Part shown: piece after piece, positions 24,920 to 57,904 of the stretch
How the letters are laid out: the number at the start of each line of letters is the position of its first letter
How positions within the stretch are numbered: position 1 is the first letter of the stretch
Assembly (NCBI GenBank): GCA_965153455.1
Contig: OZ234493.1
Coordinates: 20,822,213-20,886,212, forward strand
DNA length: 64,000 nt
Reading direction: 5' to 3'
From: Sphagnum compactum
Lineage: Eukaryota
Notes under the pieces: model-generated
What the model saw: only the letters and a program-made list of their open reading frames with translations
Database searches by the model: none
Told to the model about the DNA's origin: nothing
Translations under genes and position numbers: made by a program

Positions 24920-24957
24920 TGTTTCTACAACCTGCTTCACTTAGACAATGTCTATTG

Positions 24958-28918: not shown

Positions 28919-29029
28919 TATAACCTCCAACCCTAAAGAAAAAACCACCAGTTATTGTTAAATGTTAATTCTAATGAACTAAACCATAAGCAACAACAAA
29001 GAAAAATAAATCCGCCACCATAGAGGAAG

Positions 29030-30500: not shown

Positions 30501-33109
30501 AAACAAACAAGACAAAAGAAAGGATGCATACCTGGGTCCCGTGTGGGTCCTGTTCGAGCTCCAGCCACAGCTCTCCAGCTCCCCAGCTCCCCAGCTCCCC
30601 AGCTCCAATAGCTCCAGCTCTAGGCATGCTTTAGCTCCAACTAGAATTCTAGCTTCAGGCTCGCTCCCAGTCGACGGCTTTGGAGCTCTGGCGATGGAGT
30701 GAGGGTGGGAGGGGGTGGTAGGTGGTAGGTAGGAGGGGGGAGGTAGGTGTTAGGTAGGTTGGGGGAGGAAGATGGTAGGTATGAGGGGGGGGGGTAGGTG
30801 GTAGGTAGGAGGGGGAAAAGTTTTGGGTAGAGAAGAGGTTGAAAACAAAAATACATGCAGGCAGGGAGGATGGGATTTTTGTTCATCCGCAAAACGGCTC
30901 CAATGGGCTCATCTGCAATTGGTGCATTAGTGGCTACTGGTTCACTGTAGCCAATCAAGAGTTGTTTTCAACGAAACTAGTTGGAACCCCATGCCTACTG
31001 CACAGGGGTGTTATTTCAACATTGTTTGGTTCATGTTTTAGCTTTTTAAAAAAAATTTATCTTTCTAATTTTTAATTTTAGGGTGTTTTTTGTTTTATTA
31101 TTATTTTGTATAATAAAAATAAAGTGTTTCTTTTTCACTCTAGTAATTTTTCATGCACCCATTTTTGTACATCTTTTATCAATATAATAATATCTTCTAC
31201 TCACACTTGTTTTATGGGTATATGGTTAATCACATGTCTTCTTTGTCATAATTTTCTTAGTATTTGAGATGTAAAAATCAAACTAAAGATCAAAATGAAC
31301 ATTATGCAATATTTACATCTAATATAATAGGATTCACATCACCTGAAGAGTTTTAAAACAATACACACATTTTAAACATATAATACTTACATCATTTTCA
31401 ATTATAAATTCCATAAGGAGATTTTCAAATATGTAATACCCGCATATAAGTCTTAAAATAGCCGCCTGCATTTTGCATTCATTGCAATACCCGCATATAA
31501 GTCCCATAATTGCCGCTGGCATTTTGCATTCCTTGTAATACTCGCATATGGGCCACAAATAGTTGCTAACATTCTTCATTCGTTGTAATACCCGCATATG
31601 GGTCCCATGGTATTCGTTAGGTTTTTCTAACATTCCTTGCAATACCTGCATATAATTTCCATAATAGCCGCTGGTTTTTTTTTGCATCTCTTGCAATACC
31701 CACATATAAGTCCCATAATAGTTGTTAGTTTTTTTCATTCATTGCAAAACTTACATTTTGTCATAAAATTAATTCAGAATAATAATTAATTTAGGTATTT
31801 AAAGAGACATATTTTGGGTACCCAAAGCACTTGTTAATTATTTTGAAATGACGTTATATGCAGGTATTGCATTTAGGGTTTAGGGTCTTCACATAAGGTT
31901 TGCCTCAATCACCTATGGATTATTTTAGTATGAACTTGCATGTATTGCATGTAGGCCTTGGTCTTCATTCAAAGGCGCACCCAAACTACATATTGGGTAT
32001 TTCAAAGCGATTTTACATGTGGGTATTACATTTAAGGTTGCCCTTTCATTGTAGGTTTTACCTTATTCACCTATGGGTTATTTTGAAATGACCTTGAATA
32101 TGGTTATTGCATTTAGGGTTAAGGTTTCGTATAATTTTGACCCACTATATGATTATTTTAACCAAGAATTTATTTACTATATATCAGAAAAGTATATAAT
32201 AAAATTTCAATCAAACATAGGATTAATATGTTGGAGAGATCATTTTTATTATTATGTGAAACATGAAAGAAAAGTAGCAATTTATGTGCTTTGATTTTTT
32301 TTTAAACATAGTTTAAAATCTTATTAAATTAGAGACTTTATATTATGTTTTTTGAATTCAGTATACAACTTTAAAAGGGGGGGAAAAGAAATGAACACCT
32401 TTGAAGAAATTTTAAGCTTGAACTTTTTATTTTTTGATCTCAACAAACTTTGTATTGCATTCAGGGTTGGGTTTTCACATAAGGTTTGTTTTTTACCTTT
32501 GTGTGATAACTCCAACCTAATTTTCCCAATCTCTTTGAAGAAAATATAGAATGAGATTGTATTGTTTCACATATGTCTAAACCCAAAAACTTTCCCCCCA
32601 ATTTAATATAAAATATTTATGATAATTAATGTATTATCAAGAAATTTTGTCATATAATTAAAAAATTAATAGACCATTATTTCACATAATTTAGATGATT
32701 AATTATCAAGAATTAGATAATCATTTATTTATTTGAAATAATTAACTAATCATTTGGCTTAACTTTATTTACTTGGATAATAAAAAGTTGGATCTAAAAA
32801 TCAGATTGATTAATTTGATATTTGATTGATTAACTTAAGTATATTTTTGTTTTAGTAAGTTATTGAAATCACTATTTAAGATAATTATTCCATGTTATAG
32901 ATTGTAAGTTGAGTTTTTTCATGAAAAATTCCTACACCAAGATAAGCTTGATCACAATTTGTCATTGTATTATTTGTTCCACAAACAAATATAACCTCTT
33001 TTCAAATCCATGAAACAATGTAAGAATCATGGAACTCCTAATCAACAACCCTAACCTCTATACACACCTTTGTTAACATATTAATTTGAAATTAACTAAT
33101 TATTTTGGG

Positions 33110-33535
33110 GTGACCCAAAATGCATGTATTGCATTTAAGGTAGGATCTTGTATAAGATGCTTAAACCCCACATGCGTATTTTTGGTGTGACCTAAAATAC
33201 AGATATTGCATTTAAGGTAGGATCTTGTATAAAGATGTTTAAACCTCACATGCAAACTTTCGAAATGGCCCAAAATGTAGGTATTGCATTTAGGGTAGGA
33301 TCTTCGTATAAAGAAGGCTTAAACCCCACATGCATATTTTTGGTGTGACCCAAAATGCAGGTATTACATTTAGGGTAGGATCTTCGTATAAAGATGCTTA
33401 AACCCCACATGCATACTTTCGAAATGGCCCAAAATGCAGGTATTGCATTTAGGGTAGGGTCTTCGGATAAAGAAGGCTTAAACCCCACATGCGTATTTTT
33501 GGTGTGACCCAAATGCAGGTATTGCATTTAGGGTT
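33110..33535. repeat. ~80-bp subterminal tandem repeat of the MULE (CCCAAAATGCAGGTATTGCATTTAGGGTAGGATCTTCGTATAAAG...), 5-6 copies
   Basis: Direct periodicity of about 80 bp. Confidence 0.85.
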
Positions 33536-34442
33536 TAAGGTAATTAATAGGGTAGCTAGGTTAGTAGGGTAGGTGGTTAGTACAGTAGCTAGGTCAATAG
33601 GATAACTAGTTATTAGGGTAGCTGTGTCAGTAGGGGATAATAAATAAGGTACCAAGGTTGGTGCAGTACTTATGAAGGTAGAAAAGTGAGCACGGTAGCT
33701 ATGTGTGAGGTCAGGTCCAGGGAAAAACGACCAAGAACCAAAAAAAAGAAAGTACAATGGTCAGCAGCAAAAAGAAATGGACTGTCATGAACCCTATCCG
33801 GCACCGAATGAAAAAACACAAGGCATCCAGTGGACAGAATGGCCAATTGTTGCATTGATGGCTGCTAGTTCACTCTGGCCCTCTTGATTCAAGTTGTTAC
33901 ACAAACAAGGGGTGCGTCACACTGTGGATTTTAGGTAGAAGCTTGCAATTTTACTACAGAAATATAAGAGTGATTGTTTAACATCATGGGATAAAGGTCA
34001 TGGGATAAAGTGTGTTGTGCTATTGGGAACATCTTGAGAACTTGGGGAACATATCAGGAATGCATTAGGACACAGTGGGAACTTAATGTGAACATATTGA
34101 AAACTTGATGGAAGCTTGGTGGGAACATATTGGGAACATCAAAATCCAAAAAATCCACTCTTGAAAAACACTTCTTTGAATATATGTGTAATAGAATTCT
34201 CCTTTTGTTATCATTGCATTCACCCAGTCTATTTAACTTGTTGCTAAATGATTTTTTTCATGAAATCATAAAACTTCAAGTGTAAGCAAAGTAGAGTGTA
34301 TTGTGATGCACTTCTTTTCAATGACTTTTATTACCAAAGAAAAACCTATGTTTTCTGCTAATTTCCATTTCTGATATTAAAATTTTCAATTGAATATCGA
34401 ACATATATATATATAATGCATATGCATTTCTCCAAAAGTAGC

Positions 34443-38043: not shown

Positions 38044-38836
38044 TGAAACTGTTTGTCACCAATTTTTGTTGTGGGTAATACACCTGGCCCCTTCCTGAAT
38101 GAGCGTAATACACCCACCCTATTGCCGCTACCCCTTTAATTCGTCTCATGCATTAAAAATACGTGAGGCAGATAGGTGCTTGTTCAATGAAGGTGGACAT
38201 TTTGGGGTCGAAACTGTTGCTGAAATTTCACCTTCGTGCTTCAAGATGCCTTGCTTGCGGCACACGACAGCAAGTGGTATAATATTTTCTAATTCCATGG
38301 GGGCCAATGAAACTGTTTGTCACCAATTTTTGTTGTAGATAATACACCTGGCCCCTTCCTGAATGAGCGTAGTGACCTACCCTATTGCCGCTACCCCTTT
38401 AATTCGTCTCATGCATTAAAAATACGTGAGGCAGATAGGTGCTTGTTCAATGAAGGTGGACATTTTGGGGTCGAAACTGTTGCTGAAATTTCACCTTCGT
38501 GCTTCAAGATGCCTTGCTTGCGGCACACGACAGCAAGTGGTATAATATTTTCTAATTCCATGGGGGCCAATGAAACTGTTTGTCACCAATTTTTGTTGTA
38601 GATAATACACCTGGCCCCTTCCTGAATGAGCGTAGTGACCTACCCTATTGCCGCTACCCCTTTAATTCGTCTCATGCATTAAAAATACGTGAGGCATATA
38701 GGTGCTTGTTCAATGAAGGTGGACATTTTGGGGTCGAAACTGTTGCTGAAATTTCACTTTCGTGCTTCAAGTTGCCTTGCTTGCGGCACACGACAGCAAG
38801 TGGTATAATATTTTCTAATTCCATGGGGGCCAATGA
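38044..38836. repeat. Near-perfect tandem triplication of a 263-264-bp unit
   Basis: Units start at 38044, 38308 and 38571 and differ by only a few bases. Confidence 0.95.
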
Positions 38837-39539
38837 CTAAATACCATAGTACCTTGGCAACTTCAACACATGTTTGTTAAATAATTAATTAATTTTGAAA
38901 TTTTCATTTTCACAAATAAAAAATTCATGATGATTCCATATTTTCCTGGAATTTTTATTTTTCCTTTTGTAGTTTTTCAGGAAACTTTCAACCTTCTTGA
39001 AAATAATTATTGTTGAAGTTAGCCGAGGTAGCAGGGTAAGTAAGTGCAACAAATTAAATGCATCTCAGCAAGGTAGTTTGTTTTGATTTGTCAAGTTGAG
39101 GTCTCCCGAACCATGGCATTTCATGCCAAGCTCTTGATATCAATGGAAAGCTATCCATGAGGGCTGGAGTGAACCAGCAACCACCAATGCACCAGTTGAG
39201 GATGAGCCTGTTCAGCTCGTTTTGCGGATGAACATCCTCCCTGCCCGTGGGGGGTTTTTTTTTTCACCTCCTCTCTGCCCCACCTACCTCCCCCCTCCCT
39301 CCTACCTACCACCTACCTCCCCCCTCCTACCTACCACCTACCAACCCCACCCCCCCTCACTCCATTGCCAGAGCTCGAGCTGTGGCTGTGGAGCTCGAGC
39401 TGTGGAGCGGGAGCTGTGGAGCCGGTGGTTGTGCGGCTAGAGCGGAGCGGGACCCACGCGCCCACAAAGAGGTAAAATGCTTTGAGCTTTTTTTTGGTTT
39501 TTTTTGTTTGTTTTGTTTGAAGAAGGCATTGTTCCCTTC

Positions 39540-40790
39540 TTCTTTTGTTTTTTGCAGCGCAAGAAGGCGCAAAGAAGAAGGCGACGGCAAAGCTGCCGTC
39601 GCCTTCTTCTTATTGTTTTGCTGTGCTGCAGTGCAAGAAGGCGACGACAGCAACGCTGCCGTCGCCTTCTTTTTTTTTTCTTTAGCACCGGAAGAGAAAA
39701 AAGAAGAAAGCGATGGCACTACCGTCGCCTTCTTCTTTGCGCTCTTGTTTTGATGTGCTATAGCGCAGCAGAAGAAGGCGACGGCAGCTTTGCCGTCGCC
39801 TTCTTCTTGTTGTTTTGCTGCGCTGCAGCGCAAGAAGGCGACGGCAGCAACGCTGCCGTCGCCTTTGTTTTTTTTTGGCAACAGAAAAGAAAAAAGAAGA
39901 AGAAGGCGACGGCAATGTCGTCGCCTTCTTCTTCTTTCCTCTTGTTTTGCTGCGCTGTAGCGCAAGAAGGCGACGGCAACAACGCTGCCGTCGCCTTCAT
40001 TTTTTTTTGGCAACAGAAGAGGAAGAAGAAGAAGGCGACAATACTGCCGTCGCCTTCTTCTTCTTCCTCTTGTTTTGCTGCGCTGCAGCGCAGCAGAAGA
40101 AGGCGACAGCAAAGCTGTCGTCGCCTTTTTCTTGTTGTTTTGCTGCGCTGCAGCGCAAGAAGGCAACGGCAGCGTTGCTGTCGTCGTCTTTTTTTTTTTT
40201 TGGGCAGCACAAGAGGAAGAAGAAGAAGGTGACGATAGTGCCATCGCCTTCTTCTTCGTCCTCTTGTGTTGTTGCGCTATAGCGCAACAGAAGAAGGCGA
40301 TGGCAAAGCTGCCGTCGCCTTCTTCTTGTTATTTTGCTACATTGCAGCGCAAGAACGCGACGGTAGCGTTGCTGTCGTTGCTTTTTTTTTTGGCAGTAGA
40401 AAAGAAAAAAGAAGAAAAAGGCGACGGCACTGCCATCGCCTTCTTCTTTTTTTTGTAGCGCAAGAAGGCGCAAAGAAGAAGGCGACGACGAAGCTGCCGT
40501 CGCCTTCTTCTTGTTGTTTTGCTGCTTTGCAGCGCAAGAAGGCGACATGGAGCTTGCTGCTGTGGAGCTGCGCTGCAGCGCTGCTCCAGATTGCCTTGTT
40601 TTTACTGTTGTGCACCTGCGCTGTGCTGCATTTTTTTTTTCCCTTGTAGCATAGCAAAGAAGGCTGCAACGTTGTATTGAAGAAGAAGACGATAGCTCTC
40701 GCCACCTTCTTCGCTTTGCTGCAAAGAAATGGCGAATTTGCCACCTTCTTCACTTTGCTGCAAAGAAATGGCGAATTTGCCACCTTCCCC
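39540..40790. repeat. CG-rich array of short inverted-repeat hairpins, in a putative leader intron of the zinc-finger gene
   Basis: For example 39771-39806 has 16-bp perfect arms and a 4-nt loop. The motif recurs throughout the interval. Confidence 0.85.
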
Positions 40791-40876
40791 TATGGTGGCG
40801 GATTTGTTGTTGCTTATGGTGTAGTTGCTTAGAATTAACATTAAGGTAACTGGTGGTTTTTTTCTTTAGGGTTATA

Positions 40877-42389
40877 ATGGCCAAGGGAAGAAGATCGAAG
40901 AAAACCGCTGGTGGGGAGTTGGAAATGAGTAAAGAACATGGTACTGCGTCAGATGACGCAATTTTTCTGCCAAAGTTTGCTGTGTTAGACGAGGCAATTC
41001 TTCTGCCAAATGTTGCTGTGTTAGAAGAGGCAATTCTTCTGCCAAATGTTGTTGTGTTAGACGAAACAGACGCCGAGCCACACGTTGCTGCAACTACCGA
41101 GCAAAATATGACTTTAGTAGATGAAGCAATTGGTGACCGAAGTAGTGTTGCAACAGATCAGCCAATGGGTGAGCAAAATAGTGCTCTATCATAATTGAAA
41201 GACAAGGATGATAGTTTGGTATAGATTGTTTTAGATTTTATGGACATTAGATTAAAGACACATTTAAAAAATTGTACAAGTCTCTTCAAGTGTAATTATA
41301 TCCGCACCTTCCATCATTTGTTGGAAGGTGCGAGATTTTTTTTATCAATTTTTTTCTATTGCGATACCTGAAAATAGTTCATGTTTACAGGAGTAGTATG
41401 TGATTAAGTGAGTTTATGTTTTGTAATACCTGCATTCTGTGTTTTGATCTTTCATTTTTTGGTTTAGGTCCGGAAGTTGAATCTGACCAAGCTCCTCAGT
41501 CACTTGCACTTCTTTGTCCACCTAATTTGGCTCGAAAGGATAAAGAATGGACAAAGGTTGGGTCGAAATGGAAGTGCAAAGTTGGCACCTGCATTGTCGC
41601 ATATTGTGCCAAATGGTTGTTGACCCAGCATTTGAAGGAGAATCATGGCTTGGTGGCAGAAAAGGCCAAACCTGGGAGGTCTTCAACTGCTACAGGAGGT
41701 CCTCGACATCAAGACCATGCCAAAATGAATGCTCGCATCTTGGGAAATGCGATGGCTGTGCAAAGGCGAAACGATCAAAAGGTGGCTAGTCGCGCTCGTG
41801 CCAAAGCACAACGTGAGTGGGAAAACCTGGTAGCTGTTGCAAAACAGTGTCCACCATTCCCAAAACCAGGTTTGGTCAAATTAGCTTTAAAGCAACTGTT
41901 GAAAGTGTTGGGCCTTACTGCTTGGGATGTGGGCAGTGTGCCTCGAGATGCAGCATCGCGAATGGAGAAAGATGAAGATTTGCAAGGGATTATCCGATCC
42001 ACTCGTTGCGCATATGCACGACAACTCAAGACGACATGGGATATCAAATATTGGGATTGAGAGTCCAATAAAACAAGTCGGACAAAACTATTGGCAGATG
42101 TTTTGGATTTTCATGAATTTAGAATGATTCATGGAAGGTAAGAAATAATAATAAGCAATGTTTATTGTTTTTTTATTACATTTCATTCAAGGTGTGTTAG
42201 GGTTTAACTTGGTGGTTTTTGGGTGTTTATAGGGTTCAGGGCCAAACACAGGAAGAGTTTATTGCAACTGCAGCTCAGGTTGAGCTGCAACGCAGCCATT
42301 TTTACATTGCTCGTCATGCAGCAAAAGCTGCAAAAGCAGCAGCTGCATACCGAGCTAAACACGGGATTATAGATACTGATATGGGTTAG
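40877..42389 (+). pseudogene. MULE-borne C2H2 zinc-finger gene, copy 2 (372 codons, one nonsense mutation)
   Basis: Exons 40877-41168, 41468-42137 and 42233-42389 with GT-AG sites and matching phases. Finger C-x4-C-x12-H-x4-H (CKVGTCIVAYCAKWLLTQHLKENH). TGA at 42058-42060 where copy 1 has CGA. Confidence 0.82.
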
Positions 42390-45227
42390 GGTTTCACTCT
42401 ATATAATTAGTTAGGTTTTGTAGCCCTTTTATTTTTTGGACTACCCAATTTTGAATATCGATCCTTTGATATGTTGTAGAGAACCAACGTTTTTTTTTCA
42501 TTGGGTTCTTTAGTAATTTTTCATGCACCCATTTTGTACATCTTTTATCAATATAATAGTATCATCTACTCACACTTGTTTCATGGGTATATGGTTAAAC
42601 ATATGTCTTCTTTGTCATAATTTTCTCAGTACTTGAGATGTAAGAATCGAACCAAAGATTAAAATGAACATTGTGCGATACTTACATCTAATATAATAGG
42701 ACTCACATCACCTGAAGAGTTTTAAAACAATACACACATTTTAAACATATAATACCTACATCATTTTCTATTATAAATCTCATAAGGAGATTTTCAAACT
42801 TGCAATACCCGCATATAAGTCCCATAATAGCCGCTGGTTTATTTGGCATCCCTTGCAATACCCGCATATGAGCCACAAATAGTTGCTAACATTCTTCATT
42901 CGTTGCAATACCGGCATATCGATCCATGGTATTCGCTTTGTTTTTATAACAATCCTTGCAATACCCACATATAGTTTCCATAATAGCCGCTGGTTTTTTT
43001 TCCTCTCTTGCAATACCCGCATATAGGTCCCATAATAGTTGTTTGGTTTTTTCATTCATTGCAAAACTTACATTTTAACATAAAATTAATTCAGAATAAT
43101 AATTATTTTAGGTATATAAAAAGACATATTTTGGGTACCCAGAGCACTTATTTGTTCTTTTGAAATGACGTTACAGGTGGGTATTGCATCTAGGGTTTAG
43201 GGTCTTCACATAAGGTTTGCCTCAATCACCTTGGATTATTTCAGTATGAACTTGCATGTAGGTATTGCATCTAGGCCTTGGTCTTCATTCAAAGGCGCAC
43301 CCAAACTACATATTGGGTATTTCAAAGCGACCTTACATGTGGGTATTACATTTAAGGTTGCCCTTTCATTGTAGGTTTTACCCTATTCACCTATGGGTTA
43401 TTTTGAAATGAACTTGAATATGGCTATTGCATTTAGGGTTAAGGTTTCGTATAATTTTGACCCACTATATGATTATTTTAACCAAGAATTTATGAACTAT
43501 ATATGAGAAAAATATATAATAAAATTTCAATCAAACATAGGATTAATATGTGGGAGAGATCATTTTTATTATTATGTGAAACATGAAAGAAAAAGTAGAA
43601 ATTTATGTGCTTTAAGTTTTTTTTTAACATAGTTTAAAATCTTATTAAATTAGAAACTTTATATTTATGTTTTTTGAAATCAGTATACAACTTCAAAAGG
43701 GGGGAAGAAAAAATTAACATCTTTGAAGAAATTTTAAACTTGAACTTTTTATTTTTTGATCTCAACAAACTTTGTATTGCATTCAGGGTTGGCTTTCACA
43801 TAAGGTTTGTTTCTTACCTTTGTGTGATAACTCCAACCTAATTTTCCCAATCTCTTTGAAGAAAATATAAAATGAGATTGTATTGTTTCACATATGTCTA
43901 AACCCAAAAATTTCCCCCCAATTTAATATAAAATATTTATGATAATTAATGTATTATTTCGAAATTTTCTCATATAATTAAATAATTAATAGACCATTAT
44001 TTCAGATAATTTAGATGAATAATTATCAAGAGTTAGATAATCATTTATTTATTTGGAATAATTAACTAATCAATTGGCTTAACTTTATTTACTTGGATAA
44101 TAAAAAGTTGGATCTAAAAATCAGATTGATTAATTTGATATTTGATTAATTAACTTAAGTATATTTTTGTTTTAATAAGTTATTAAAATCACTATTTAAG
44201 ACAATTATTCCATGTTATAGATTGTAAGTTTAGTTTTTTCATGAAAAATTCCTACACCAAGATAAGCTTGATCACAATTGTCATTGTATTATTTGTTCCA
44301 CAAACAATACAACCTCTTTTCAAATTCATGAAACAAAGTAAGAATCATGGAACTCCTAATCAACAACCCGAACTCTATACACACCTTTGTTAACATGTTA
44401 ATTTAAAATTAACTAATTATTTTGGAGTGACCCAAAATGTAGGTATTACATTTAGTGTAGGATCTTCATTTAAAGAAGGCTTAACCCCCACATGCGTATT
44501 TTTGGTGTGACCCAAAATGCAGGTATTGCATTTAGGGTAGGATCTTCGAATAAAGATTTGCTTAAACCTCACATGCATGCTTTCGAAATGGCCCGAAATG
44601 CAGGTATTGCAATTAGGGTAGGATCTTCGTATAAAGATGCTTGAACCCCACATGCGTATTTTCGAAATGGCCCAAAATGCAGGTATTGCATTTAGGCTAG
44701 GGTTATTTCAAAGTGACTTTGTGTCTGCATATTCTGTTTAGGGCTAGGTCTTCACTTAAAGGTATCCAAACCATTTAGATGGGTTTTTTTTTAACATGTG
44801 GGTATTGCATTTAGGCTTGTTTTTTCATTTACACTTGTAATGCCCAAACTTGTACTTACCTCTACCAACTGGAATTTTGGGTTTCATCGCAATACCTACA
44901 TTTGTACTTACCTTTACCAACTGGAATTTTGGGGCATAATTGCAATACTTGCACTTGTACTTACTTTTACCAACTGGAATTTTGGGGCCTAGTTACAATA
45001 CTTGCATCTAACAGTAATATGATCATTATCCTTGTGTTTTTGCATTTCACACTTTTTGTGCTTATTACTTGGAAACAATAATAAGCTTTGTGCCATATTG
45101 GACTTCATGTGTGTTTTGAATACATGATGTTCAAAGAATTTGGGCTATGATTTCCTCCATACAAAATTGATTCTAAAAGAAAATTCTTAGCGCCAATGGC
45201 AACAATGTTGAGTAGTAATTGAAACAT

Positions 45228-47924
45228 TTATTTGTGACATCGTTTAGTACGTACATTTGTGTGATTGAACATTGTTTCATGCCAATCATTGAGCCGTTTG
45301 ACACTATTTCCCAATCCATCTTCTACACGGTGTAACACCAATCCTGGGTGTGAAATTGCATTTGCCTTTGTGAGGCGTATGTTACGAATATTACATGCCA
45401 ATACTCTCATGTGTGAGGTGGCATGTTCACAAAGTGTCACATCGCCTTCTTTACATTCATTTGTGATCTCTTGCATTGTAGTGACCAATTGTGCAAGAGC
45501 CCTTTCCATTGGGGTTGATGAATTTATTGTTTCATTAGACCCTACAATGGCACCCATAAGGAGATCATTTTGCTCCATGTTCATGAGCCCATCAAATTCC
45601 ATGATCCCATCATCACCTTCAAGATGATCATCTTCGTCATCATCATTGGACTCCATATCATTTGGAATATGTTGCGGGTCTGCAAACATGTGACCCAACC
45701 CTCCACGATGTGATCCATACCATGTTCCACAGTAATGAATGATATCCTCTTGAGAAATGTCTGTGCATGTGAGAATGACCTTAATTTGGTGTTTACACAT
45801 GTTCCCCCGCAATGCCCATTTGCATGTGCAACAAAACATTTCGGTGAATGGGAATTTCACCGTGTAAATAACATTGGGAAGGCGTTGGCTCCGTACGGCC
45901 CAAGCTCCATCACTCTCAAAGGTTGGTTGGTACACATGGCTGAGTGGAATAAGGGCTGCCATTTCCACACTTCGTGTAATAATGGCCTCCATAACCTTGT
46001 TTTTTATGAAACCCCTCTTTTTCATTTCCAATGTGTGCATGTAGTGGCGTGCAATGGTTGTTGTTAATCGCCACACCAATTGGTCAATTATTACGCCCTC
46101 TAAGGCCTTTTGTGTCAAGAGCAAACCAACGCTTCAATCCACCATGATATGATTCAATGCTCGCTTGGGTGTCTTGGTTGGAATGGGGCACTCTTCGAAC
46201 ACCCACCATCCATAATTCTACAAACATAAACACAATACATAAGGATGAATAACATTATACAAAATAATTTTGAATGCTAAACCATGAAAAATATTATCAC
46301 TTACCAAATTGATGGTAATAAGTCCAGAAATAGTTTGTCCACGCATCACCAGGCTTATGTTTATGAAGGCTTTCTCTCACAGCAACCCTCCCACGTTCTT
46401 TGAAGTCATCAATTGTTTTCCCATGATTGATGGGCATGTACATCACATCATGAATGTCTTGGAAGATTCCACCCCGCACTTCCACATCTTTGATTTTTTC
46501 AGTACCACGTAGGCGCCATGCTTTGAGAACATGCCAACAACAAAGGTAGATGGGAACCTTGTCCATACCCCATACGACCCTAATAAGGACACATATGCAA
46601 TAAAATCTCCATGAGTGGATGGGGTTAGTAACCCATAAAATGCATTTGAAGTAATCAAGAATTTTATGAAAGATATTAAAAAACATTTAAGGAAATAAAC
46701 ACAAAGTCGATACTAGGTATAGAACTAACCGTAATGCTTTCAATTCTTGAGGTGCATCATCAACGAGAAAACATGATGGTTTCCAATGTGGCATGTGTGA
46801 TAACATCTTCTTTTTTAATGGTTTCAACCATTCGATCAAATCTTGCACTGTTTGCCTACTTGTAATGATCCAGGCTAAAGGGACACCCGTGCGATGATCA
46901 TCAAACCCCATCAAGGTGAATAGATGGAATTTCATGTCATTTGTGCCAAATGTGGCATCCATAGAAATGACACCATTGTGACCATATGATAACATGGACT
47001 CGCATTGAGTTGGTGTTTGAATACCAATGGTGAACGGGACTTGAGTTCCATTGATTTCACCAACATCTTGGAAAAAGAACACATCTTCCGGATGTTGGAG
47101 AGCCCAAGACCGAATTGAAATTGCAGGGTTAGTGTGTAAACGCCAACTCCCTCTCTTATGTTTCCGATCCAAATATGTAATGTCTTGAAGCCGAATGAAA
47201 TCATCTCGTGTCATGCTTTGACCCGCATTCACACGTTCCCACCAAATTGCTTTATGCTTGTCATATATTTGTTTGGTCGTGTATCCTAAGCTTAGTTGGG
47301 CCCATATGTGGTCTTTCAATGCTTGTGACATGCGTGGAGCATAACAAGACATACAAGAAATGGACTCTGGGTCATGCTCACCATGTGCGAATGACCCATC
47401 AATTCGTGTATGGGCTTTATGATAAATTGTGATCTCAGCCACATCAGGTCGTGTGTATAGACGTTTGATTGAGAATGACGCTAGGCATCCTCGTTTAATA
47501 GATCGAGTGTGGGTTGAATTTTCTCGATAATCCTCTGGTCCATATCCGCATTGATACCTAAACCAAAAAACTTTCAAAACGTAAATGATTACATCTTTGG
47601 TATATGAATTATAGAAATTAAAAAGATTAATGCCATAAATGTTTACCATGTATGCTCGAGGTGGTTTTTGATAGTTGGTTGCTTGACATCTGTTTGGCTT
47701 GGAAAGTTTTTGTAAATATTCCATTCCATAGGGGTGCTTGTATCCCCTCGTTCACCTTCCAAGAATTTCGAAATGCAAACATATGGAACATAAGCAAATT
47801 GAATGGTCACTTTATTTTGCCCTCCATGGCGTATCCCAAACGTCCACACCAAGTCTTTGTTTGAGAAAGGGGACTTGGTGGGGTTTTGGACATGAATGGA
47901 ATGGCACTTTGGAACCCTTCCCAT
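45228..47924 (-). pseudogene. MULE (Mutator) DDE transposase with SWIM zinc finger, one frameshift
   Basis: Exons 47924-47647, 47557-46730, 46579-46305 and 46217-45228 with matching phases. Motifs MDATFGTN, FLVDDA, CCWHV, IESYH and SWIM CTCKWALRGNMCKH. A net +1 frameshift near 46090 (LRGRNN* versus IIDQLVWRL). Confidence 0.9.
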
Positions 47925-48243
47925 GATTGAAGGAAGTAGGACAAATTCCTGCACCAAGAGAATTTATAATTATCTAAACATTCATCATTGAACAAAAACC
48001 CAAAATGCAATACTACATGGTTCCTTTAAAATCAATGTTGTGACTTGGGATTCCCATTACAACACCCATATCATGATATAAAATACCTACTATTCCAATG
48101 TACATAACGTACAATACTTGCATTATGAACCCATATACTAAAACAAACTTTGGCAATACCCACATTGAGCTATTAAACCTCCCATCATTGAAAAATGTTC
48201 ACATATGCAATACCCGTATTGTACCTTAAACCCATAGTGTCTA

Positions 48244-49023
48244 AAAACCCCATGTAGCAATACCCACATAATGATAATTAATGCACACTGTTTAGAGGTT
48301 CAAAATGCAATACCTACCTTAAGCCATAAAACACACACTGGTTGTGGGTAGTCAATGCATTATTCGCATATGGGTATGAAAAGAAACTACAAAGAGAGAT
48401 TGAATTCAAAATATCCATGTAAAAGTATAAAACCTTTATTTATGGTTGTATATTTCAAGAAACTTGATGCCCTTTCTATATCCAATAACTAGGAAATGAA
48501 AAGAGGTTGAATTGTGAAAATAGAAACAAAAAAACAAAAGAAGTAACAAGAGACAAATGCATACCTTTAAGAATAAAAGATGACGACGTTCCACCAAAGT
48601 TTATAGTCCCAATTGAAAATGCAACCCTAAAAAATCAATATTTTACAAAACCCCATGTAGCAATACCCACATAATGATAATTAATACACACTGTTTAAGA
48701 GGTGCAAAACGCAATACCTACCTTAAGCCATAAAACACACACTGGTTGTGGGCAGTCAATGCATTATTTGCATATGGGTATGAAAAAAAAAACTACAAAG
48801 AGATATTGAATTCAAAATATCCATGTAAAAGTATAAAACCATTATTTATGGTTGTATATTTCAAGAAACTTGATGCCCTTTCTATATCCAATAACTAGGA
48901 AATGAAAAAAGGTTGAATTGTGAAAATAGAAACAAAAAAACAAAAGAAGTAACAAGAGACAAATGCATACCTTTAAGAATAAAAGATGACAACGTTCCAC
49001 TAAAGTGTGTAGTCCCAATTGAA
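48244..49023. repeat. Tandem duplication of ~400 bp upstream of the transposase
   Basis: 48244-48617 is nearly identical to 48647-49023. Confidence 0.85.
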
Positions 49024-49472
49024 GACGATTTAGAATGCAATTGTACTACTTCACATATGTATAAACCCTAAAATTTCCCCCCCAAATTTAGCCTACTTTA
49101 GATTAATTACTATACATTTGTGAAAACTTATTATTGATTTATATGTCGCAGCCCTAAACCTAAACCATAATCCAATAGTACTTACTTATAATAATTACAT
49201 GGAAAGAGTATTGTAATGTCCATTCAATAATAAATTAGGTAAACAAAATTTAGTAGGATTGAGGGGGGGGGGGTGGGGTGGAAAAAATGAGTAGGTAGTT
49301 AATTAGGTATTTGGTTATGTAAAAAACATAGATAGATAGGTAGTTAGGTAGATAGGCAAGTTAGTACATAAGAAACAAATTACATTATCAAGGTGACTAG
49401 GTTTGTAAAATACTTATGTCAATAGGGTGGTTGTGTATGTAGGGTAGGTAGTTAGTATAGTGGTTAAGTTAG

Positions 49473-49665
49473 TGTTATGGACCGACTACAAACAAGTGGA
49501 GAATTACAAGACAAGACAAGCTTTATTGATCCATCAACTGGTGTTGATCTGCTAAAGGGTTGTTCCCCAGACTATCTCCTTTTATAACCCTGAGCCATAC
49601 TAGTCCCAAAATATCCTAGGCCATGATATTGCCAAAAGTATCCCAAAATATCCTAGGCCATGACA
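49473..49665 (-). repeat. 3' LTR (193 bp, TG...CA)
   Basis: Nearly identical to 55352-55581 and adjacent to the PPT. Confidence 0.93.
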
Positions 49666-52600
49666 TTATCCTCTCCTCAAGCGACATCTTCTAGATGGAG
49701 CCGGTTTGTTAGGATATCGTTGGTGAAACCGATTAACTAAGTCTTGGGCATGAACTAGGTTTCCAGCAGGCTCCCAAGTAGCTTCAGAAGGAGGATAACC
49801 TCGCCAAAAGACAAGGTACAGGAGCTTTCCACGAATCTTCTTGGAGTCCAAGACCTCCTGAACTTCAAACTCTTCTTGGCCTTCAATTTCGACTAGAGCT
49901 GGGGGTTCTTGATGATGTTCTGGGATCGGGTTTTCATGATAGGGCTCAAGCAGGGAGACATGGAAAACATTGTGGATTTTGAACTGGGGTGGAAGCTCCA
50001 ACTGGCAAGCCACTAGACCAACCAATTTGGCGATTTTGAAAGGTCCGAGGCGCTTGTAATCCAACTTGGCACATGGGCGAGTGGTAGCAATGTTCTTTCT
50101 GAGAAGCCAGACCTTGTCTCCAACCTTGAAGTTTGGATGGTCCTTGCGTCGGCGGTCTGCTTGCTTCTTTTGCCACTCCTGTGTTAGCTTAAGTTCTGCC
50201 ATAAGGTTCTGTTGAACCTGTCCAAGCCTCGTGGCCCTTTCTTCAGCCGAGGGGTTTACAGAGTCTCCAGGAATTTCAAGGCTGAACCTGGGATGAAAAC
50301 CATAATTGGCAAAGAATGGACTAATCCCGGTCGATGCATGTGTTGTGTTATTATAAGCAAACTCTGCTTGAGATAGTAGGTCCAGCCAGTCGTCCTGTTG
50401 GTAGTTCACAGTGCAGCGAAGGTATTGCTCGAGTGTCTAGTTTGTCCGTTCGGTTTGTCCATCTGTCTCAGGGTGGAAAGCTGAAGATAGCCGAATGTCA
50501 ACTCCAAGAAGCTCGAATAGACGATGCCAGAACTTGGATGCAAACTGAAGACCTCTGTCGGACACAATTTCCTCGGGGAGTCCATGCAGTCGGACGATCC
50601 CGTCCAGAATTAACTGAGCTGTCTCTTCTGCCGTGATTGACTTGGAACAAGGGGTGAAATGGGCCATTTTGGTGAGTCGATCGACCACAACCAGTATTGA
50701 ATTCTTGGTTCTGACAGTAAGGAGGTCCGTGATGAAGTCCATTGCAATAGATCCCCAAGGTCGGCTAGGAATCGACAGAGGCTGTAGGAGTCCAAACGGG
50801 CGATGCCTGGGAGCCTTGGATCGAACACATGTATCACAAGACTTGACATACTCCCGTAGCATCTTGTTCATTTTGGGCCACCAATAAGTCCTTGACACTA
50901 GTTCGTAAGTCCGTGCCATTCCAAAGTGACCTGCCAGGGTGTTGTCGTGGCATTCCCTCAGGATTTTTAGGCGTATAGGTCCTTCGGGTACATAAATCAG
51001 GTTATTTCGAAGGAGAAGTCCGTCTTGCTGCTCAAATTGATCCAAGTCATCACGATTTGGGTTCCTTGGTCGTTCCTGGAGTTCCTTCTTGATGTTGGTA
51101 GCCCAGGTGTCTTCCTTAGTTGCTATCTTGATGTCCCTGACAAGGTATGAGTCTGGGAGGGTGCTGATTGTTGCTGCAACTCGAAATTGCTTGGGGTTGA
51201 GTAAAGTCTGGTTCTGCTGGCCGTAGGCCTCATCCCCCGCTCGAAGTTCATATTCTGAACGATGAGATAGCGCGTCAGCTTTCCCTTGCTGGGTGCCGGG
51301 TTGATACTGAATCTCAAAGTCGAAATCAGCTAGGAAGATAGACCAGCGTGCCTGGCGACGATTTAAGGTCTGAGTAGTTGTGAAATAAAGGAGATTCTTG
51401 TGATCTGTCAGAACTTGGACTCGATGTTGAGCTCCGGCAAGATACGGTCTCCACTGCTCGAATGCCGTGATGATTGCCAGGAGTTCCTTATCGTAGACCT
51501 GGTAGTTGATTTCGGCACTGGTTAACTTCCGTGAATAGAAAGCAACTGGATGCATCAACCCATCTATTCCAAATTGAGATAGAATAGCTCCCAAGGCAAA
51601 ATCTGAAGCGTCCGTTTCCACAATGAATGGCTTGGTAGGATCGGGATGTATCAGGATGGGTGCAGAGGTGAATGCCATCTTGAGAGTATCAAAAGCAACC
51701 TGGGCCGTTGGATTCCACGAGAAGGGCTTGTCTTTGCAAGTCAGGGTTATTAACGGTGTTGTGATCTTGGAATAGCCTTTGATAAACCGACGATAGAAGT
51801 TGGCAAACCCTAGGAAGCGTTGAACGTCCTTGACCGAGGATGGAGTAGCCCAACACTGGATGGTCTCGACCTTTGACTTGTCCATGAAAATGCCATCTGG
51901 AGAGATCACATAGCCGAGGAACGCCACTGAAGATTTGTCGAATTCACATTTTTCCAACTTGGCGTATAAGCCATGCTCCCGCAGCGTCGCAAACACCAAT
52001 CGTACATGTTTGTCGTGGGTTTCCTGGTCCTTGGAAAATATTAAAATGTCATCCAAATAGACCACGACAAATTCGTCCATGTAATCCCGGAAGATATCAT
52101 TCATCAGATGCTGAAAGACTGTGGGTGCATTGGTGAGGCAGAAGGGCATGACCGTGTATTCGAAGTGGCCATAGCGTGTGTGGAAAGCTGTCTTCCATTC
52201 ATCACCAGGGCGAATCCTGAGTAAGTTGTAGGCTCCACAGAGGTCAAGCTTGGTGAAGATCTTCCCGGTACGTAATCGATCTAGGAGACCTGAAATCAAG
52301 GGCAAAGGATATCGATTCTTTTTGGTTATCTTGTTGAGTCCACGATAATCCACACAAAGTCGAAGGGAGCCATCCTTCTTCTCGACAAACAAAATTGGGG
52401 CCCCGGCTGGAGACTTGGAATGCTGAATGAACCCCTTGGCAAGATTTTCAGTAAGGTAATCACGCAGGGCTTGGAGTTCCGGTTCCGATAGGCCATAGAT
52501 AGGACCAAAGGGTGGTGACTGTCCTTCTAGATCAATCGGGCAGTCATATGGACTAAGGGCGGGGAGCTGATCAGCATTAATCTTTTAAAAAACATCAACA

Positions 52601-53420
52601 AAGTCCTTGTACTTCTTGGGAAGTTTAACAGGTGTTGGTTTCGATTGGGGTTTGTGGTGTTGGCTGGGTTGACATGGATGGCGAAGATTTGAAGATTCTT
52701 AGCAGCCCGATAGAAAGGGACAGCTCTATCAACGAAGATCTGGACAGGGTTGGTTTTTTGGGCAGAATTCTTGACAAGATTCTTGACAGGACAAGGTTTC
52801 GTTCTGACCAATCGGGGGTTCTTGACTGCAGGATTTGACATAACAGACTTGATAAAACTGGAATTGGTTCCGACCCTCTTTGGGTTCTCGACCACAGGGT
52901 TCTTGGCAGGACTGGACAAAGTGTTTTTCTGAGCGTGGGGTTCTTGAGAGGTGCATCGTTGTGCGCTGAAGGTGAGGGTTCTAGATCGCCAATCAATGAT
53001 AGGGTTGTGTGCTTCTAGCCAAGGCAGACCAAGGATGATGGGATGGTGAGGGGTGGAAATGATGTTGAGAACAATCTTCTCCGTGTGCTTGCCGATACAG
53101 AGTTCTAGAGGGGTTGTCTCGTGTGTGATTGCACCAGAAGCAATGGTTCTCCCATCAATAACCTCTACCGGAACAGGGGTTGACTTCTTGACCACAGGGA
53201 TGTTGTGTTGGACGACAAATGTTTGGTCGATGAAAGAAGAGGTGGCGCCGGAGTCCACCAAAGCTGACACTTGTGGTATGTCTTCTGGAATACGAATGAT
53301 GTCCACATATTGAGTGAAACTGGGACTGGGACCAACAGCGGAACAGGAGCCTTTGCAAAGGTGGTGTTGGGTGAGATCTAGTCGCACGGCTCCTACTGTG
53401 ACTGGATGTTCTTGTTTTCG
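49666..53420 (-). pseudogene. Gypsy pol (protease, RT, RNase H, integrase, chromodomain), disrupted
   Basis: ALVDSGAT, YLDDILIF, ETDASD, HHCC plus DFIT/DRG/E integrase core, GPF motif, and chromodomain FEVQEVLD...YLVFWRGYPPSEATWEP. Frameshift near 52650, stops near 52585 and at 50437. Confidence 0.92.
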
Positions 53421-54367
53421 AACTCCTGGGGAGTTTCCACAGCTTGTACCTGAAGTTTGACAAGCTTTTGAGGGCATTGACGAGCTATATGCCCTGGGTT
53501 GCCACAGTAAAGACATAGATTGTTTGTCCTTCGGCGAAGTTTCTCGGCTTCTGTCAAAGATTTAAACTTAGCTGTGTCGATCTGCATCGGAGCAGGTCCA
53601 AAAGAGGTAGGTCGGGCAACTGGTGTTGTTTGGGGAACTAAGGGGAGCGTAATAGGCCGACTGTTCCAAAGCTAGGCGTTGGAGGTGACTTTCTTTTCCT
53701 GGCGACGTTCGAACAGACGATTATCACACCGAATTGCCTGGGTGATGGCTTCACTGAAGGAAGAAGGGTCTGCGAGTGTCAACAAAAGATCTTGAACATC
53801 ATCACGAAGCCCACAGCGAAACTGATCAATCAAGGCAGCTTCTCCCCAATTGACGTCACAGGCAAGCTGCCTGAATTCTGAAGCGTAGACGATGGCCGAA
53901 TGTGTCCCTTGCTGGAGGTGACGCAGCTTGTTGGCTGAAGTCCTGGCCTTATCACTGTCCCCAAATACTGCTTCAAATTTTGCCATAAAGGCGTTGAAAT
54001 CTTGTAGAAGAGGGGATGATGTTTCCAGGATGGGAGCAAACCATGCTGCAGCTGTCCCAGTGAGTAGGGTTCCAACGAATCCTACACGAGTGGTGTCATC
54101 AAAATAACGACGGGGGTGTAGTTGCATGATCAGGCGTACCTGGCTGACAAAGCCTTGAAATTTGAGGCGCGTTCCATCAAACTTTTCTGGCAGACTGATC
54201 TTGGGTTCTTGGGTGGCCATTGCAAGAGCAGGAAATACTGGGGCAGGAGGTGGTGGCTGATTCTGTAGGCGGGTCACCGAGTCTCTAAGCACGGCATTTT
54301 CTTGTTGAAGGTGTTGAAGGGCGGCGAGGATTTGAATGAGATCGATGTTGGATTCTGAGTTGTCCAT
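53393..54367 (-). pseudogene. Gypsy gag with CCHC zinc knuckle, premature stop at 53672-53674
   Basis: PEKFDG...QFRCGL capsid-like region, PMQID, and [14 protein letters not shown] in the same frame on either side of a TAG. Confidence 0.88.
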
Positions 54368-54406
54368 GGTGGTAGTTCTCACACTTTTGCGCTTTCAATC
54401 TTCAAA

Positions 54407-55211
54407 CTTGAAACTTCAGATGCTTGGATCTCTCTCAATACAAGTCCAAATGACATGAAATTTCTCTCACACATATATTCCTATATGATCTATAAGATCA
54501 CAAAGTTACAGACCGAAAGAAACTTAAACAAAGGAGATATAACCAAAAAACCAGATCTGCACTTGAAACTTCAGATGCTTGGATCTCTCTCAATACAAGT
54601 CCAAATGACATGAAATTTCTCTCACACATATATTCTTATATGATCTATAAGATCACAAAGTTACAGACCCAAAGAAGCTTACACAAAGGAGATATGACCA
54701 AAAAACCAGATCTGCACTTGAAACTTCAGATGCTTGGATCTCTCTCAATACAAGTCCAAATGATATGAAATTTCTCTCACACATATATTCTTATATGATC
54801 TATAAGATCACAAAGTTACAGACCCAAAAAAGCTTACACAAAGGAGATATGACCAAAAAACCAGATCTGCACTTGAAACTTCAGATGCTTGGATCTCTCT
54901 CAATACAAGTCCAAATGACATGAAATTTCTCTCACACATATATTCCTATATGATCCATAAGATCACAAAGTTACAAACCCAAAAAAGTTTACACAAAGGA
55001 GATATGACCAAAAAACCATATCTGCACTTGAAACTTCAGATGCTTGAATCTCTCTCAATACAAGTCCAAATGACATGAAATTTCTCTCATGTATATTCCT
55101 ATATGATCTATAAGATCACAAAGTTACAGACCCAGAAAAGCTTACACAAAGGAGATATGACCAAAAAACCAGATCTGCACTTGAAACTTCAGATGCTTGG
55201 ATCTCTCTCAA
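54407..55211. repeat. 155-bp tandem repeat in the retrotransposon 5' leader, 5 full copies plus a partial one
   Basis: Units start at 54407, 54562, 54717, 54872, 55027 and 55180. Confidence 0.95.
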
Positions 55212-55351
55212 AACATATCCTTTTCTTTTGAAACTTTAGAGTAGAAGCGTCCTATAGTCTTCTATAACCTTTCCAAGTTTCACTCCAATATACCTCTAGC
55301 TACTTACTGAAACAACAACACAAACAAACAAGAAGAAGGAGAAGATCAAAC

Positions 55352-55581
55352 TATTATGGACCGACTACAAACAAGTGGAGAATTACAAGACAAGACAAGC
55401 TTTATTGATCCATCAACTGGTGTTGATCTGCTAAAGGGTTGTTCCCCAGACTATCTCCTTTTATAACCCTGAGCCATACTAGTCCCAAAATATCCTAGGC
55501 CATGATATTGCCAAAAGTATCCAAAAATATCCTAGGCCATGACATTGCCAAAAGTATCCCAAAATATCCTAGGCCATGACA
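55352..55581 (-). repeat. 5' LTR (230 bp) with TATA box (55465-55459) and AATAAA
   Basis: Matches the 3' LTR except for one extra 37-bp internal unit and a TG to TA change at one terminus. Confidence 0.93.
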
Positions 55582-57904
55582 GTTAGTAGGGTATGTAATT
55601 AATAGGGTAGCTAGGTTAGTAGGGTAGGTGGTTAGTACAGTAGCTAGGTTAATAGGATAACTAGTTTTTAGGGTAGCTATGTCAGTAAGGGATAAGAAAT
55701 AAGGTACAAAATGCAGGTATTGCATTTAGGGTAGGATCTTCGTATAAAGAAGAAGCTTAAACCCCACATGCTTATTTTTGGTGTGACCCAAAATGCAGGT
55801 ATTGCATTTAGGGTAGGATCTTCATATAAAGAAAACTTAAACCTTACATGCGTCCTTTCGGAGTGGCCTAAATTGCAGGTATTACATTTAGGGTTGGGTT
55901 ATTTCAAAGTGATTTTGCATGTGCATATTGTGTTTAGGGCTAGGTCTTCACTTAAAGGTATCCAAACCATTTAGATGGGTTTTTTTGAAACATGGTTATT
56001 GCATTTAGGCTTGTTTTTTCATTTCAACTTGAAATACCCCACCTTATACTTACCTCTACCAACTGGAATTTTGGGGTTTCATTGCAATACCTACAGCCGT
56101 ACTGACCTTTACCAACTGGAATTTTGGGGTATTACTTGCACTTGTATTTATTTTTACCAATTGGGATTTTGGGGCCTAATTATAATACCTGCATTTAACA
56201 CATTATCCTTGTGTTTTTTCATTTCACACTTTTTGTGTTTATTACTTGGAAATAATAATAAACTTTGTGCCATATTAGACTTAATGTGTGTGTTGAATAC
56301 ATGATGTTCAAAGAATTTGGGCTATGGTTTCCTCCATACAAAATTGATTCTAAAACAAAAAATTTAGTGCCAATGGCAACAATCTTGATTAGTAATTGAG
56401 ACATTTATTAAAGTAAAATATTAGTTTTGAAATATATGAACCAAATTCCTATACATTAAATCATAAAACATAACCCTACAAATCCAAATGATATTTTGCC
56501 ATAAGCCTTATTACAACCCTAACTATACAAATTCTAACAAAAAAAAGATTTAGTGATATATGCCCTAAACCCAAAAAACTATACAAACGATACAAATCAT
56601 ATAATATGCAAAATAAACAAATTTAAAAGAACATAGGAAAAAATTTAGAAACCAAAATTCAAAGGTTTTAAATTATAAATATTTATTAATTGAAAGAAAC
56701 TATGTTAATCTTTAAAAATAATCAAATAAATTTCGTACAAAACCAAAAAAGAAGATACGTCTTTTACCTTTATGTGATTTTTCCAACCTAATTTTTCCAC
56801 TCTTTTTGAAGAAGGTATAAAATGCAATTGTATTACTTCACATATGTGTAAACCCTAAATATTCCCCCCGAAATCTAACCTACTTTAAATTAATTACTAT
56901 ACATTTATGAAAAACTTATCAATTAATTTATGTGTCTCAACCCTAAACGTAATGGTTAAGTTAGTAGGGTATGTAATTAATAGAGTAGTTAGGTTAATAG
57001 GGTAGGTGGTTAGTACAGTAGCTTGGTTAGTGGTGTGACCCAAAATGCAAGTATTGCATTTAGGGTATGATCTTTGTATAAAGATGCTTACACCCCACAT
57101 GCGTGTTTTCGAAATGGCCCAAAATGCAAGTATTGCATTTAAGGTAGGATCTTCGTATAAAGTAGCTTGAACCCCACATGCGTACTTTCGAAATGGCCCA
57201 AAATGCAAGTATTGCATTTAGGATAGGGTGTGTAATTAATAGGGTAGCTAGGTTAGTAGGGTGGGTGGTTAGTATAATAGCTAGGTCAATAGGATAACTA
57301 GTTATTAGGGTAGCTGTGTCAGTAGGGGATAATAAATAAGGTACCAAGGTTGGTGCAATACTTATGAAGGTAGAAAAGTGAGCAGGGTAGCTCTGTGTGA
57401 GGTCAGGTCCTGGGAAAAACGACCAAGAACCAAAAAGAAAAAAGTACAATGGTCAGCAGTAAAAAGAACTGGATTGTCATGAACCCCATCCGGCGCCGAA
57501 TGAAAAAACGCAACCCATCCAGTGGACAGAACGGCCAACTGGTGCATTGGTGGTTGTTAATTCACTCTGGCCCTACTCATGGAGGGCCAGAGTGAACCAG
57601 CAGCCACCAATGCACCAGTTGGCCGTTCTGTCCACTGGATGCCTTGCATTTTTTCATTCGGCGCCGGATGGGGTTCATGACAGTCCATTTCTTTTTGCTG
57701 CTGACCATTGTACTTTTTTTTTTGGTTCTTGCTCGTTTTTCCCTGCACCTGACCTCACACATAGCTACCCTCCTCACTTTTCTACCCTGTTCACTTTTCT
57801 ACCTAGCTACTGTACTCACCACCTACCCTACTAACCTAGCTACTGTACTCACCACCTACCCTACTAACCTAACTACCCTATTAATTACATACCCTACCCT
57901 AAAA

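Follow-up and report, generated by a model that had tools for sequence, protein, structure and literature searches.

Two convergent genes of element A

The window analysed here, 64,000 nucleotides of Sphagnum compactum (contig OZ234493.1, positions 20,822,213 to 20,886,212 of the forward strand), is AT-rich, repeat-packed eukaryotic DNA in which a Mutator-like transposable element (MULE), referred to as element A, carries a transposase gene and, convergent with it, an accessory gene for a protein with a single C2H2 zinc finger. We interpret the latter as a lineage-specific accessory gene of a Sphagnum-type MULE and not as cargo; taken together with the regulatory role proposed below for its product, this interpretation seems to us evenly poised between being right and being wrong. 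Self-comparison of the window recovered three diverged copies of the accessory gene, borne on a repeat unit of 1.5-1.8 kb: A (40877-42392, plus strand; repeat unit 40624-42869), B (~27380-28854, minus strand; repeat unit 27380-29207), and C (62680->64000, minus strand; repeat unit 62208-63997), the last of which leaves the window within exon 1.

Element A begins with a left terminal inverted repeat (TIR) of ~40 bp on the plus strand (39162-39201, starting GGGCTGGAGTGAACC...), and an inverted copy of this repeat lies at 57536-57574. The left boundary, 39161/39162, is reproduced in 20 independent loci, where similarity begins at 39159-39165. Among the 20 loci with more than 3.3 kb upstream of exon 2 of the accessory gene, 15 carry the left TIR 1.4-3.1 kb upstream of that exon in the expected orientation, and it was found in 5 loci with shorter upstream sequence as well; one of the five long loci that do not have it begins inside the subterminal region. 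An earlier reading of this DNA from sequence alone (hereafter the sequence-only reading) had suggested checking whether homologues occur only inside these TIRs. The 15 loci just described have the gene inside the TIR; L032 and L041 share an identical exon-2-only fragment with two stops in unrelated context.

As that reading had proposed, the accessory gene reads inward from the left TIR and lies tail-to-tail with the transposase, the MULE-domain gene standing opposite it in A. The transposase gene (47924-45228, minus strand, putative ATG at 47924) combines a MULE domain with a SWIM-like CxC..CxH pattern: Pfam PF10551 matched 46687-47751 (minus strand) at E 3.8e-9 with 37.3 bits against a cut-off of 27.6, and the CxC...CxH pattern is present in the translation of 45228-46133, where the Pfam SWIM model gave no match at E<=0.1. 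Two introns were placed by reading the splice sites (46729-46580 and 46304-46218). Relative to locus L078, a 1-bp insertion near 46096 breaks the frame of the A transposase just past the ES.H..LK motif; the transposase gene of L078 itself has stops. By its MULE (DDE) domain and its TIRs, the family of element A classifies as a MULE. The convergent two-gene arrangement recurs at independent loci, L075 and L078, which are two of the six loci with at least 3.2 kb downstream of exon 2. The other four comprise L030 and L032, both without a transposase, L026, which diverges, and L006, which ends at the border.

The accessory gene was modelled in A with three exons (exon 1, 40877-41168; exon 2, 41468-42137; exon 3, 42233-42389), and the spliced reading gives 372 codons plus a stop, interrupted by a TGA at 42058-42060. 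Exon 1 (plus strand, phase 1) is an open reading frame (ORF) with an ATG that encodes a basic N-terminus and then acidic 12-aa repeats. The latter, already seen in the sequence-only reading, correspond to a 36-bp tandem unit present in 3.4 copies at 40944-41064. Among loci exon 1 varies from 196 to 571 nt by whole 36-bp units and is fast-evolving. Intron 1 (41169-41467) has GT..AG borders. Exon 2, on the plus strand, encodes the finger (~41572-41652) followed by a basic helical region, and extends to 42141 when the second intron is retained, since a TAA at 42139-42141, present in 60 of 63 copies, then closes the frame. The proposed exon 3, also on the plus strand, adds 51 codons and a stop, and may instead be 3' untranslated region, as RNA does not support it.

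Transcription was assessed with a stranded polyA RNA-seq run carrying the same species label (X12; region 40700-42600); other RNA runs that contain parts of the window are labelled moss or plant metagenome. In all 97 polyA reads the first mate maps to the minus strand, fitting plus-strand RNA, and 11 of them, with 9 different starts, cross the GT..AG joint 41168|41468 (41167/8 to 41467/8), while read depth within intron 1 drops to 0.2-1.2. The same exon 1/exon 2 junction appears in a Sphagnum balticum annotation (P0062). The RNA of the accessory gene is thus polyadenylated, sense-strand, and spliced at intron 1. Across X12 and three metatranscriptome contig sets, no read joins 42137 to 42233 and depth shows no dip there. 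The three-exon model of about 372 aa given by the sequence-only reading therefore stands for the 372-codon reading in A and for the exon 1/exon 2 splice, but not for exon 3, which has neither a joint nor coding constraint: 30 of 63 copies keep its frame open, its variants found in at least 5 copies are 9 synonymous and 39 non-synonymous, and one wrong frame looks better. Exon 3 may be real despite the RNA, given that a Sphagnum jensenii annotation (P0106) joins it. A by-eye impression that the exon-3 peptide is conserved in diverged paralogues was dropped, as BLASTP gave no support. None of the aligned RNA reads is at least 99% identical to A; together with a deletion considered below, this means that the RNA shows transcription of the family and not a working protein.

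The sequence-only reading had described three MULE copies carrying the same gene, with the implication that they were intact. The homology of A, B, and C is real, but the copies are not equivalent, each being damaged, and the transposase is confined to A: nothing else in the window matches 45232-48000, and no second transposase copy was found in the 64 kb. In A, the TGA at 42058-42060 is private (CGA in B, C, and 8 of 8 RNA reads) and accompanies the transposase frameshift. Copy B is rearranged and has several frameshifts and stops. Copy C keeps exon 2 open (P0001), but its second zinc-ligand Cys has become Tyr, a replacement also present in several database copies. All window copies of the accessory gene are relics.

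Constraint on the accessory protein

Selection was measured by frequency classes and pairwise distances, with wrong reading frames as controls, over an exon-2 set of 60 ungapped copies (58 loci plus A and C; 80 loci overall). Singletons in exon 2 are 41 synonymous to 161 non-synonymous, compared with 77 to 98 for variants present in at least 5 copies (Fisher p 8e-7), a shift that, as discussed below, owes part of its size to the mutation spectrum. For transitions the omega-like ratio comes to 0.63 and for transversions to 0.33; the two wrong frames yield 0.83-5.6. Over 1770 exon-2 pairs, the ratio of non-synonymous to synonymous divergence (dN/dS) is 0.38, lower than in the wrong frames (0.57 and 0.75), and it falls from 0.84 among close pairs (dS<0.1) to 0.27 among distant ones (dS 0.4-0.6). 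At G/C sites of exon 2, the first and second positions diverge about half as much as the third. A value of dN/dS near 1 across many copies, named by the sequence-only reading as evidence against selection, was not what we found. These measures indicate that exon 2 is under frame-specific purifying selection.

The evidence first offered for selection was a stretch of 28 codons (41701-41784) in which A and C differ at 11 codons, 10 of them synonymously. The count is exact, but the stretch is the most favourable one: the A-C dN/dS is 0.25 over the whole of exon 2 and ~0.8-2.7 in exons 1 and 3. Exon 1 gave ~0.9-1.5 across window pairs.

Constraint on the protein is also apparent at greater distances. 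A diverged paralogue (L027:3449-3901) retains 39-47% amino-acid identity at 49-52% nucleotide identity, with third-position identity near random (34-39%) and a saturated proportion of synonymous differences (pS 0.78-0.84). Further paralogues at 27-45% identity retain the finger and downstream motifs. The L027 paralogue lies on the minus strand (L027:3061-3937, 41-47% identity over this longer span), in a different adjoining element.

Superimposed on this is a strongly biased decay. Between 41175 and 42850, divergence among copies falls nearly all at G/C sites (0.28-0.44, against 0.01-0.05 at A/T), and non-coding DNA shows the same (0.28 at G/C sites, 0.03 at A/T sites). Such a pattern marks decay driven by cytosine methylation and is what methylated repeats would be expected to show. 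Raw dS (0.49) exceeds intron divergence (0.13) largely because of this hypermutation at C/G sites. Purifying selection has retained the exon-2 protein in those lineages that multiply, with inserted copies decaying mainly through C/G-site transitions.

The protein itself could be placed in a class but not in a described family. The finger spacing C-x4-C-x12-H-x4-H given in the sequence-only reading is borne out, and the classical C2H2 features are present, namely C-x2-4-C-x12-H-x3-5-H spacing and a beta-beta-alpha unit in the predicted model (strands 34-39 and 42-47, helix 56-68; AlphaFold2, 44-row alignment). The same model contains long helices, the best being a 44-residue helix at residues 92-135 with a predicted local distance difference test score (pLDDT) of 85-88. 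A family profile searched against the PDB matched TFIIIA fingers (E 6.7e-4) and nothing else credible. In Pfam, the 44 family members gave weak C2H2 matches only (zf-C2H2 in 4 of 44, Zap1_zf1 in 2 of 44), and single exons of the gene gave no match. Foldseek with the low-confidence model returned 0 matches in the PDB at E<=1e-3, and an Atlas search just unnamed or weak C2H2 clusters below 0.9. An AT-hook reading of the KPGRPS segment was rejected, as its GRP core is not retained in paralogues. The protein had been called unrecognised, and no described family was matched in the Pfam, PDB profile, or fold searches; it would represent a new family within a known kind, the second ORFs of MULEs (mudrB, vanC, mutB, ORFR).

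A profile search of 1.84 billion representative proteins returned 396 matches (E<=1e-3), consisting of fragments and diverged relatives at 27-45% identity. The diverged relatives retain the finger, K..(R/H)PST, QDH..MN, P.LV, WGVGS.P, KDE.L, and an ...IHG(R/Q) end. Named relatives come only from Sphagnum balticum and S. jensenii, the remaining matches being metagenome fragments, and a protein search for longer relatives found no longer or fused forms.

These data bear on two further explanations. According to the first, it is a captured host gene or fragment, similar to Pack-MULE cargo, or a decayed passenger ORF with no role for the element. Most copies are indeed pseudogenes, exons 1 and 3 evolve approximately neutrally, and L032 and L041 carry the exon-2 fragment alone in another context. 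Such an origin is nonetheless very unlikely, considering the frame-specific purifying selection on exon 2, a protein similarity that outlasts synonymous saturation, the fixed position and orientation inside the TIR, and the lack of any host paralogue or source gene in 5.8 billion clustered or 1.84 billion representative proteins. The claim that this is a selected element gene and not neutral Pack-MULE cargo is upheld by the selection on exon 2 and by the failure to find a host parent, and no single-copy host gene emerged from the protein searches as its source.

The second explanation, which we rate as the least probable of all those considered, is that a domesticated host gene supplies the selection signal from one locus, the copies borne by transposable elements (TEs) being relics. 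It could draw on the intact exon-2 ORFs in databases and on large 90% clusters (e.g., P0015, with 142 members). The constraint is, however, spread over variants common to many TE copies and deep TE lineages, any copy whose flanks extend far enough is either a fragment or in element context, and the high copy number at 70-93% identity argues for transposition.

Element ends, derivative copies, and neighbouring features

The sequence-only reading had ended the element at 47924. This is instead the putative ATG of the transposase, and the element continues to 57574. L078 is collinear with A up to 49457 and resumes at 55587. The gap in collinearity holds a nested long terminal repeat (LTR) retrotransposon of the Ty3/gypsy chromovirus type (49473-55581, minus strand), which is not part of the MULE and whose flanks rejoin exactly as in L078. 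Its gag, protease, reverse transcriptase, RNase H, integrase, and chromodomain were all found, its LTRs (49475-49667 and 55354-55546) are 99.5% identical, and a 5-bp target duplication, GTTAG, lies at 49468-49472 and 55582-55586; the insertion is young. A 155-bp tandem array occupies 54406-55170, between gag and the LTR. A candidate degenerate right TIR at 49530-49572 was rejected, as the sequence lies inside the LTR of this retrotransposon.

The right arm of A (55587-57574, plus strand) consists of 120 bp collinear with the L078 tail, then a 1.5-kb block, and then the last ~380 bp with the right TIR. The block (55708-~57190) repeats right-arm sequence of the non-autonomous form. A may carry an internal duplication here, or may itself stop at 55707, next to a non-autonomous copy truncated at its 5' end. 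Inverted TIR copies mark right ends at 57536-57574, at 33844-33883, and in L030 and L078. In a check for an 8-11-bp target-site duplication, the flanks of A (left TATCCATGA, right TACTCATGG) agree at 6 of 9 positions, and those of L054, a 4.4-kb gene-only element between two TIRs, do not match each other. Two right TIRs stand tail-to-tail at 57536-57621 with a 10-bp spacer, TACTCATGGA (57575-57584), and the 1.5 kb on either side forms a 91% inverted repeat (55707-57227 versus 59605-58067). These facing ends could reflect two insertions into a single site or the product of an aberrant transposition.

Copies B and C are non-autonomous, and only A carries the transposase. Copy B (27380-33883, minus strand) has no transposase and a frameshifted accessory gene; the left arm, which bears the gene (27380-30946, left TIR at 30946), has been flipped with respect to the right arm (31138-33883, right TIR 33844-33883), and the inversion breakpoints map to A 42436/42508. 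Copy C (57584-64000, minus strand) is a deletion derivative comprising the gene, the intergenic arrays, and the right end (right TIR 57584-57621). C, the right arm of B, the 55707-57574 block, and L030 break off at the same point, A 45232, which lies a few bases away from the transposase stop and is joined in them to ~1.2 kb of right end (at 58886 and 56409 in the window and at L030:5469). They represent an amplified non-autonomous derivative in which the accessory gene remains but the whole transposase gene is missing.

Two tandem arrays unrelated to the MULE occur at 20186-20933 (63-bp unit, ~12 copies) and at 38112-38900 (263-bp unit, 3 copies, two of them identical). Long ORFs at 21680-23293 (plus strand) and 24317-24940 (minus strand) contain methyltransferase domains (Methyltransf_23/12/25; N6-adenine methyltransferase-like) and probably belong to the host, lying to the left of the transposon cluster.

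Motif arrays, possible roles, and known systems

The non-coding DNA of the family is saturated with short motifs. A 14-mer, TGCAATACC[CT][GA]CAT, occurs 62 times in the window against 0.14 expected, always within copies of the MULE family. It is found in intron 1 (one copy at 41422), in 53- and 81-bp tandem arrays between the two 3' ends (intergenic region 42799-45006), and upstream of the transposase gene, where five more copies lie on the plus strand at 48152-48672 in a stretch collinear with L078. Elsewhere, L078 has 10 copies and L027 has 12, three of which adjoin the diverged paralogue. Between the left TIR and the accessory gene, a palindrome array (39540-40550) contains ~11 near-perfect units with stems of 18-20 bp (AAGAAGGCGACGGCA...TGCCGTCGCCTTCTT), which have folding energies of -17 to -24 kcal/mol (z -6 to -10). 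Palindrome arrays are also present in copy B at 29200-30080, and the diverged L027 element has arrays of different sequence in the equivalent place (L027:4840-7050). The palindromes may serve as binding sites, promoter, or small-RNA source.

Considering the basic N-terminus, acidic repeats, finger, and basic helices of the accessory protein alongside this motif-saturated DNA, we infer that it may regulate its own family in trans, as a nuclear protein that binds nucleic acid. It would most likely recognise the 14-mer and/or the palindrome arrays. How such a protein might act is more tentative: (i) the mode we favour, while holding it to be less than probable, is activation or de-repression of the element's two promoters, by analogy with VANC or Spm TnpA, or (ii) somewhat less probably, it would recruit the transposase or assist its assembly on the element, as the Harbinger Myb-like protein or MURB suggest. 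The anti-silencing or targeting role put forward in the sequence-only reading is likewise a putative one, drawn by analogy.

A related but distinct explanation is that the protein serves as a transposase cofactor, binding the transposase and/or element repeats for nuclear import, end recognition, or reinsertion, without a transcriptional or anti-silencing function. In its favour, A, L075, and L078 all have the two genes linked and convergent, both genes are flanked by 14-mer arrays that diverged lineages have conserved, the N-terminus is basic, and precedents exist in MURB and the Harbinger Myb-like protein (drawn in part from PMC6446971 and PMC9168764). The acidic repeat domain, however, is more like an activation module. 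Retention of the gene in transposase-less derivatives fits either explanation. We regard a pure cofactor as unlikely, though deserving of serious attention.

Several observations weigh against the interpretation of the gene as a selected, element-encoded regulator. None of the three window copies is intact, exon 2 is stop-free in just 6 of the 60 ungapped copies (the others have 1-6 stops), and 22 of the 80 loci have indels or truncation. All five X12 reads covering 41885 (5 of 5) carry a 1-nt deletion there, and so the RNA seen may derive from dead copies. A shift between frequency classes is also seen in wrong-frame control +1 (p 0.009), which makes the frequency signal in exon 2 partly a matter of mutation spectrum rather than selection, and no constraint is apparent on exons 1 and 3. 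Taken as a whole, the fold model is poor (pLDDT 62.7, predicted template modelling score 0.34), and the predicted recognition-helix positions, by our reading of the alignment, carry hydrophobic residues (A, W, L, K), an unusual choice for contacting bases. Finally, the 14-mer could equally be the transposase's own site.

A bolder extension of the regulatory interpretation, and one we consider doubtful, is that bryophyte MULEs independently evolved a single-finger self-recognition factor that reads its own 14-mer or palindromes and activates or shields promoters, as a moss counterpart of VANC and TnpA. If true, this factor would co-diversify with its sites across MULE lineages already saturated at synonymous sites. 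Accessory genes govern Mutator insertion (MURB) or escape from silencing (VANC), and few have been studied. The present system offers a transcribed and selected protein without a known fold, clear cis-motif arrays, an abundant derivative that keeps the gene but not the transposase, and diverged sister lineages, and a test of a TE-encoded, sequence-specific regulator in mosses is thereby made practical.

MULE helper genes are already known as a kind, and what is new here is the family of the accessory gene; the finding leaves knowledge of this kind of system unchanged. A literature search turned up no such gene for bryophytes and no publication dealing with MULE accessory genes of Sphagnum or of mosses. 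Second ORFs described in MULEs include mudrB of MuDR, mutB of Mutyl, vanB and vanC of Hiun, a C2H2 ORF in Spectre, a RING ORF in Ghost, and the convergent ORFR of Abermu (PMC6446971 and PMC9168764). Among these, Mutyl (Yarrowia), Spectre (aphid), and Abermu (grass) resemble the Sphagnum element in being two-ORF MULEs: mutB has a DNA-binding role, Spectre has a separate C2H2 ORF beside the transposase, and ORFR is an ORF of unknown function convergent with the transposase (PMC6446971 and PMC9168764). They differ in their yeast, insect, and grass hosts, and no sequence relationship appeared in the searches run, the comparison being by description only.

The TIRs of maize MuDR are long. Those of the Sphagnum element, in contrast, measure ~40 bp, its 3' ends are 2.8 kb apart with motif arrays, and its accessory protein has a C2H2 finger. 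In other respects the two are alike, both being TIR-bounded, with a MULE-domain/SWIM-type transposase and a convergent, lineage-restricted second gene at the other end (MuDR as described in PMC6446971 and PMC9168764). In the searches run, the Sphagnum protein resembled no named protein, and profile searches returned only relatives of its own family.

Targets of VANC are reported to be short, family-specific motifs packed into the non-coding DNA of the element. Arabidopsis VANDAL21/Hiun, with vanC and vanB, resembles the Sphagnum family in having an accessory gene within a MULE and non-coding DNA packed with a short family-specific motif. The Sphagnum family has clear TIRs, whereas VANDALs are mostly without them. 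VAN proteins are associated with DUF1985, and a domain of this type matched 0 of the 44 family members in Pfam at E<=1. The role of vanC is described as anti-silencing (PMC6446971).

Compared with elements outside the MULEs, the Sphagnum element shows an architectural likeness only. In PIF/Harbinger and En/Spm, a small DNA-binding protein encoded beside the transposase (the Myb-like ORF and TnpA, respectively) recognises repeated subterminal motifs, which recalls the finger protein and its 14-mer arrays. These systems belong to other transposon superfamilies and use other DNA-binding folds.

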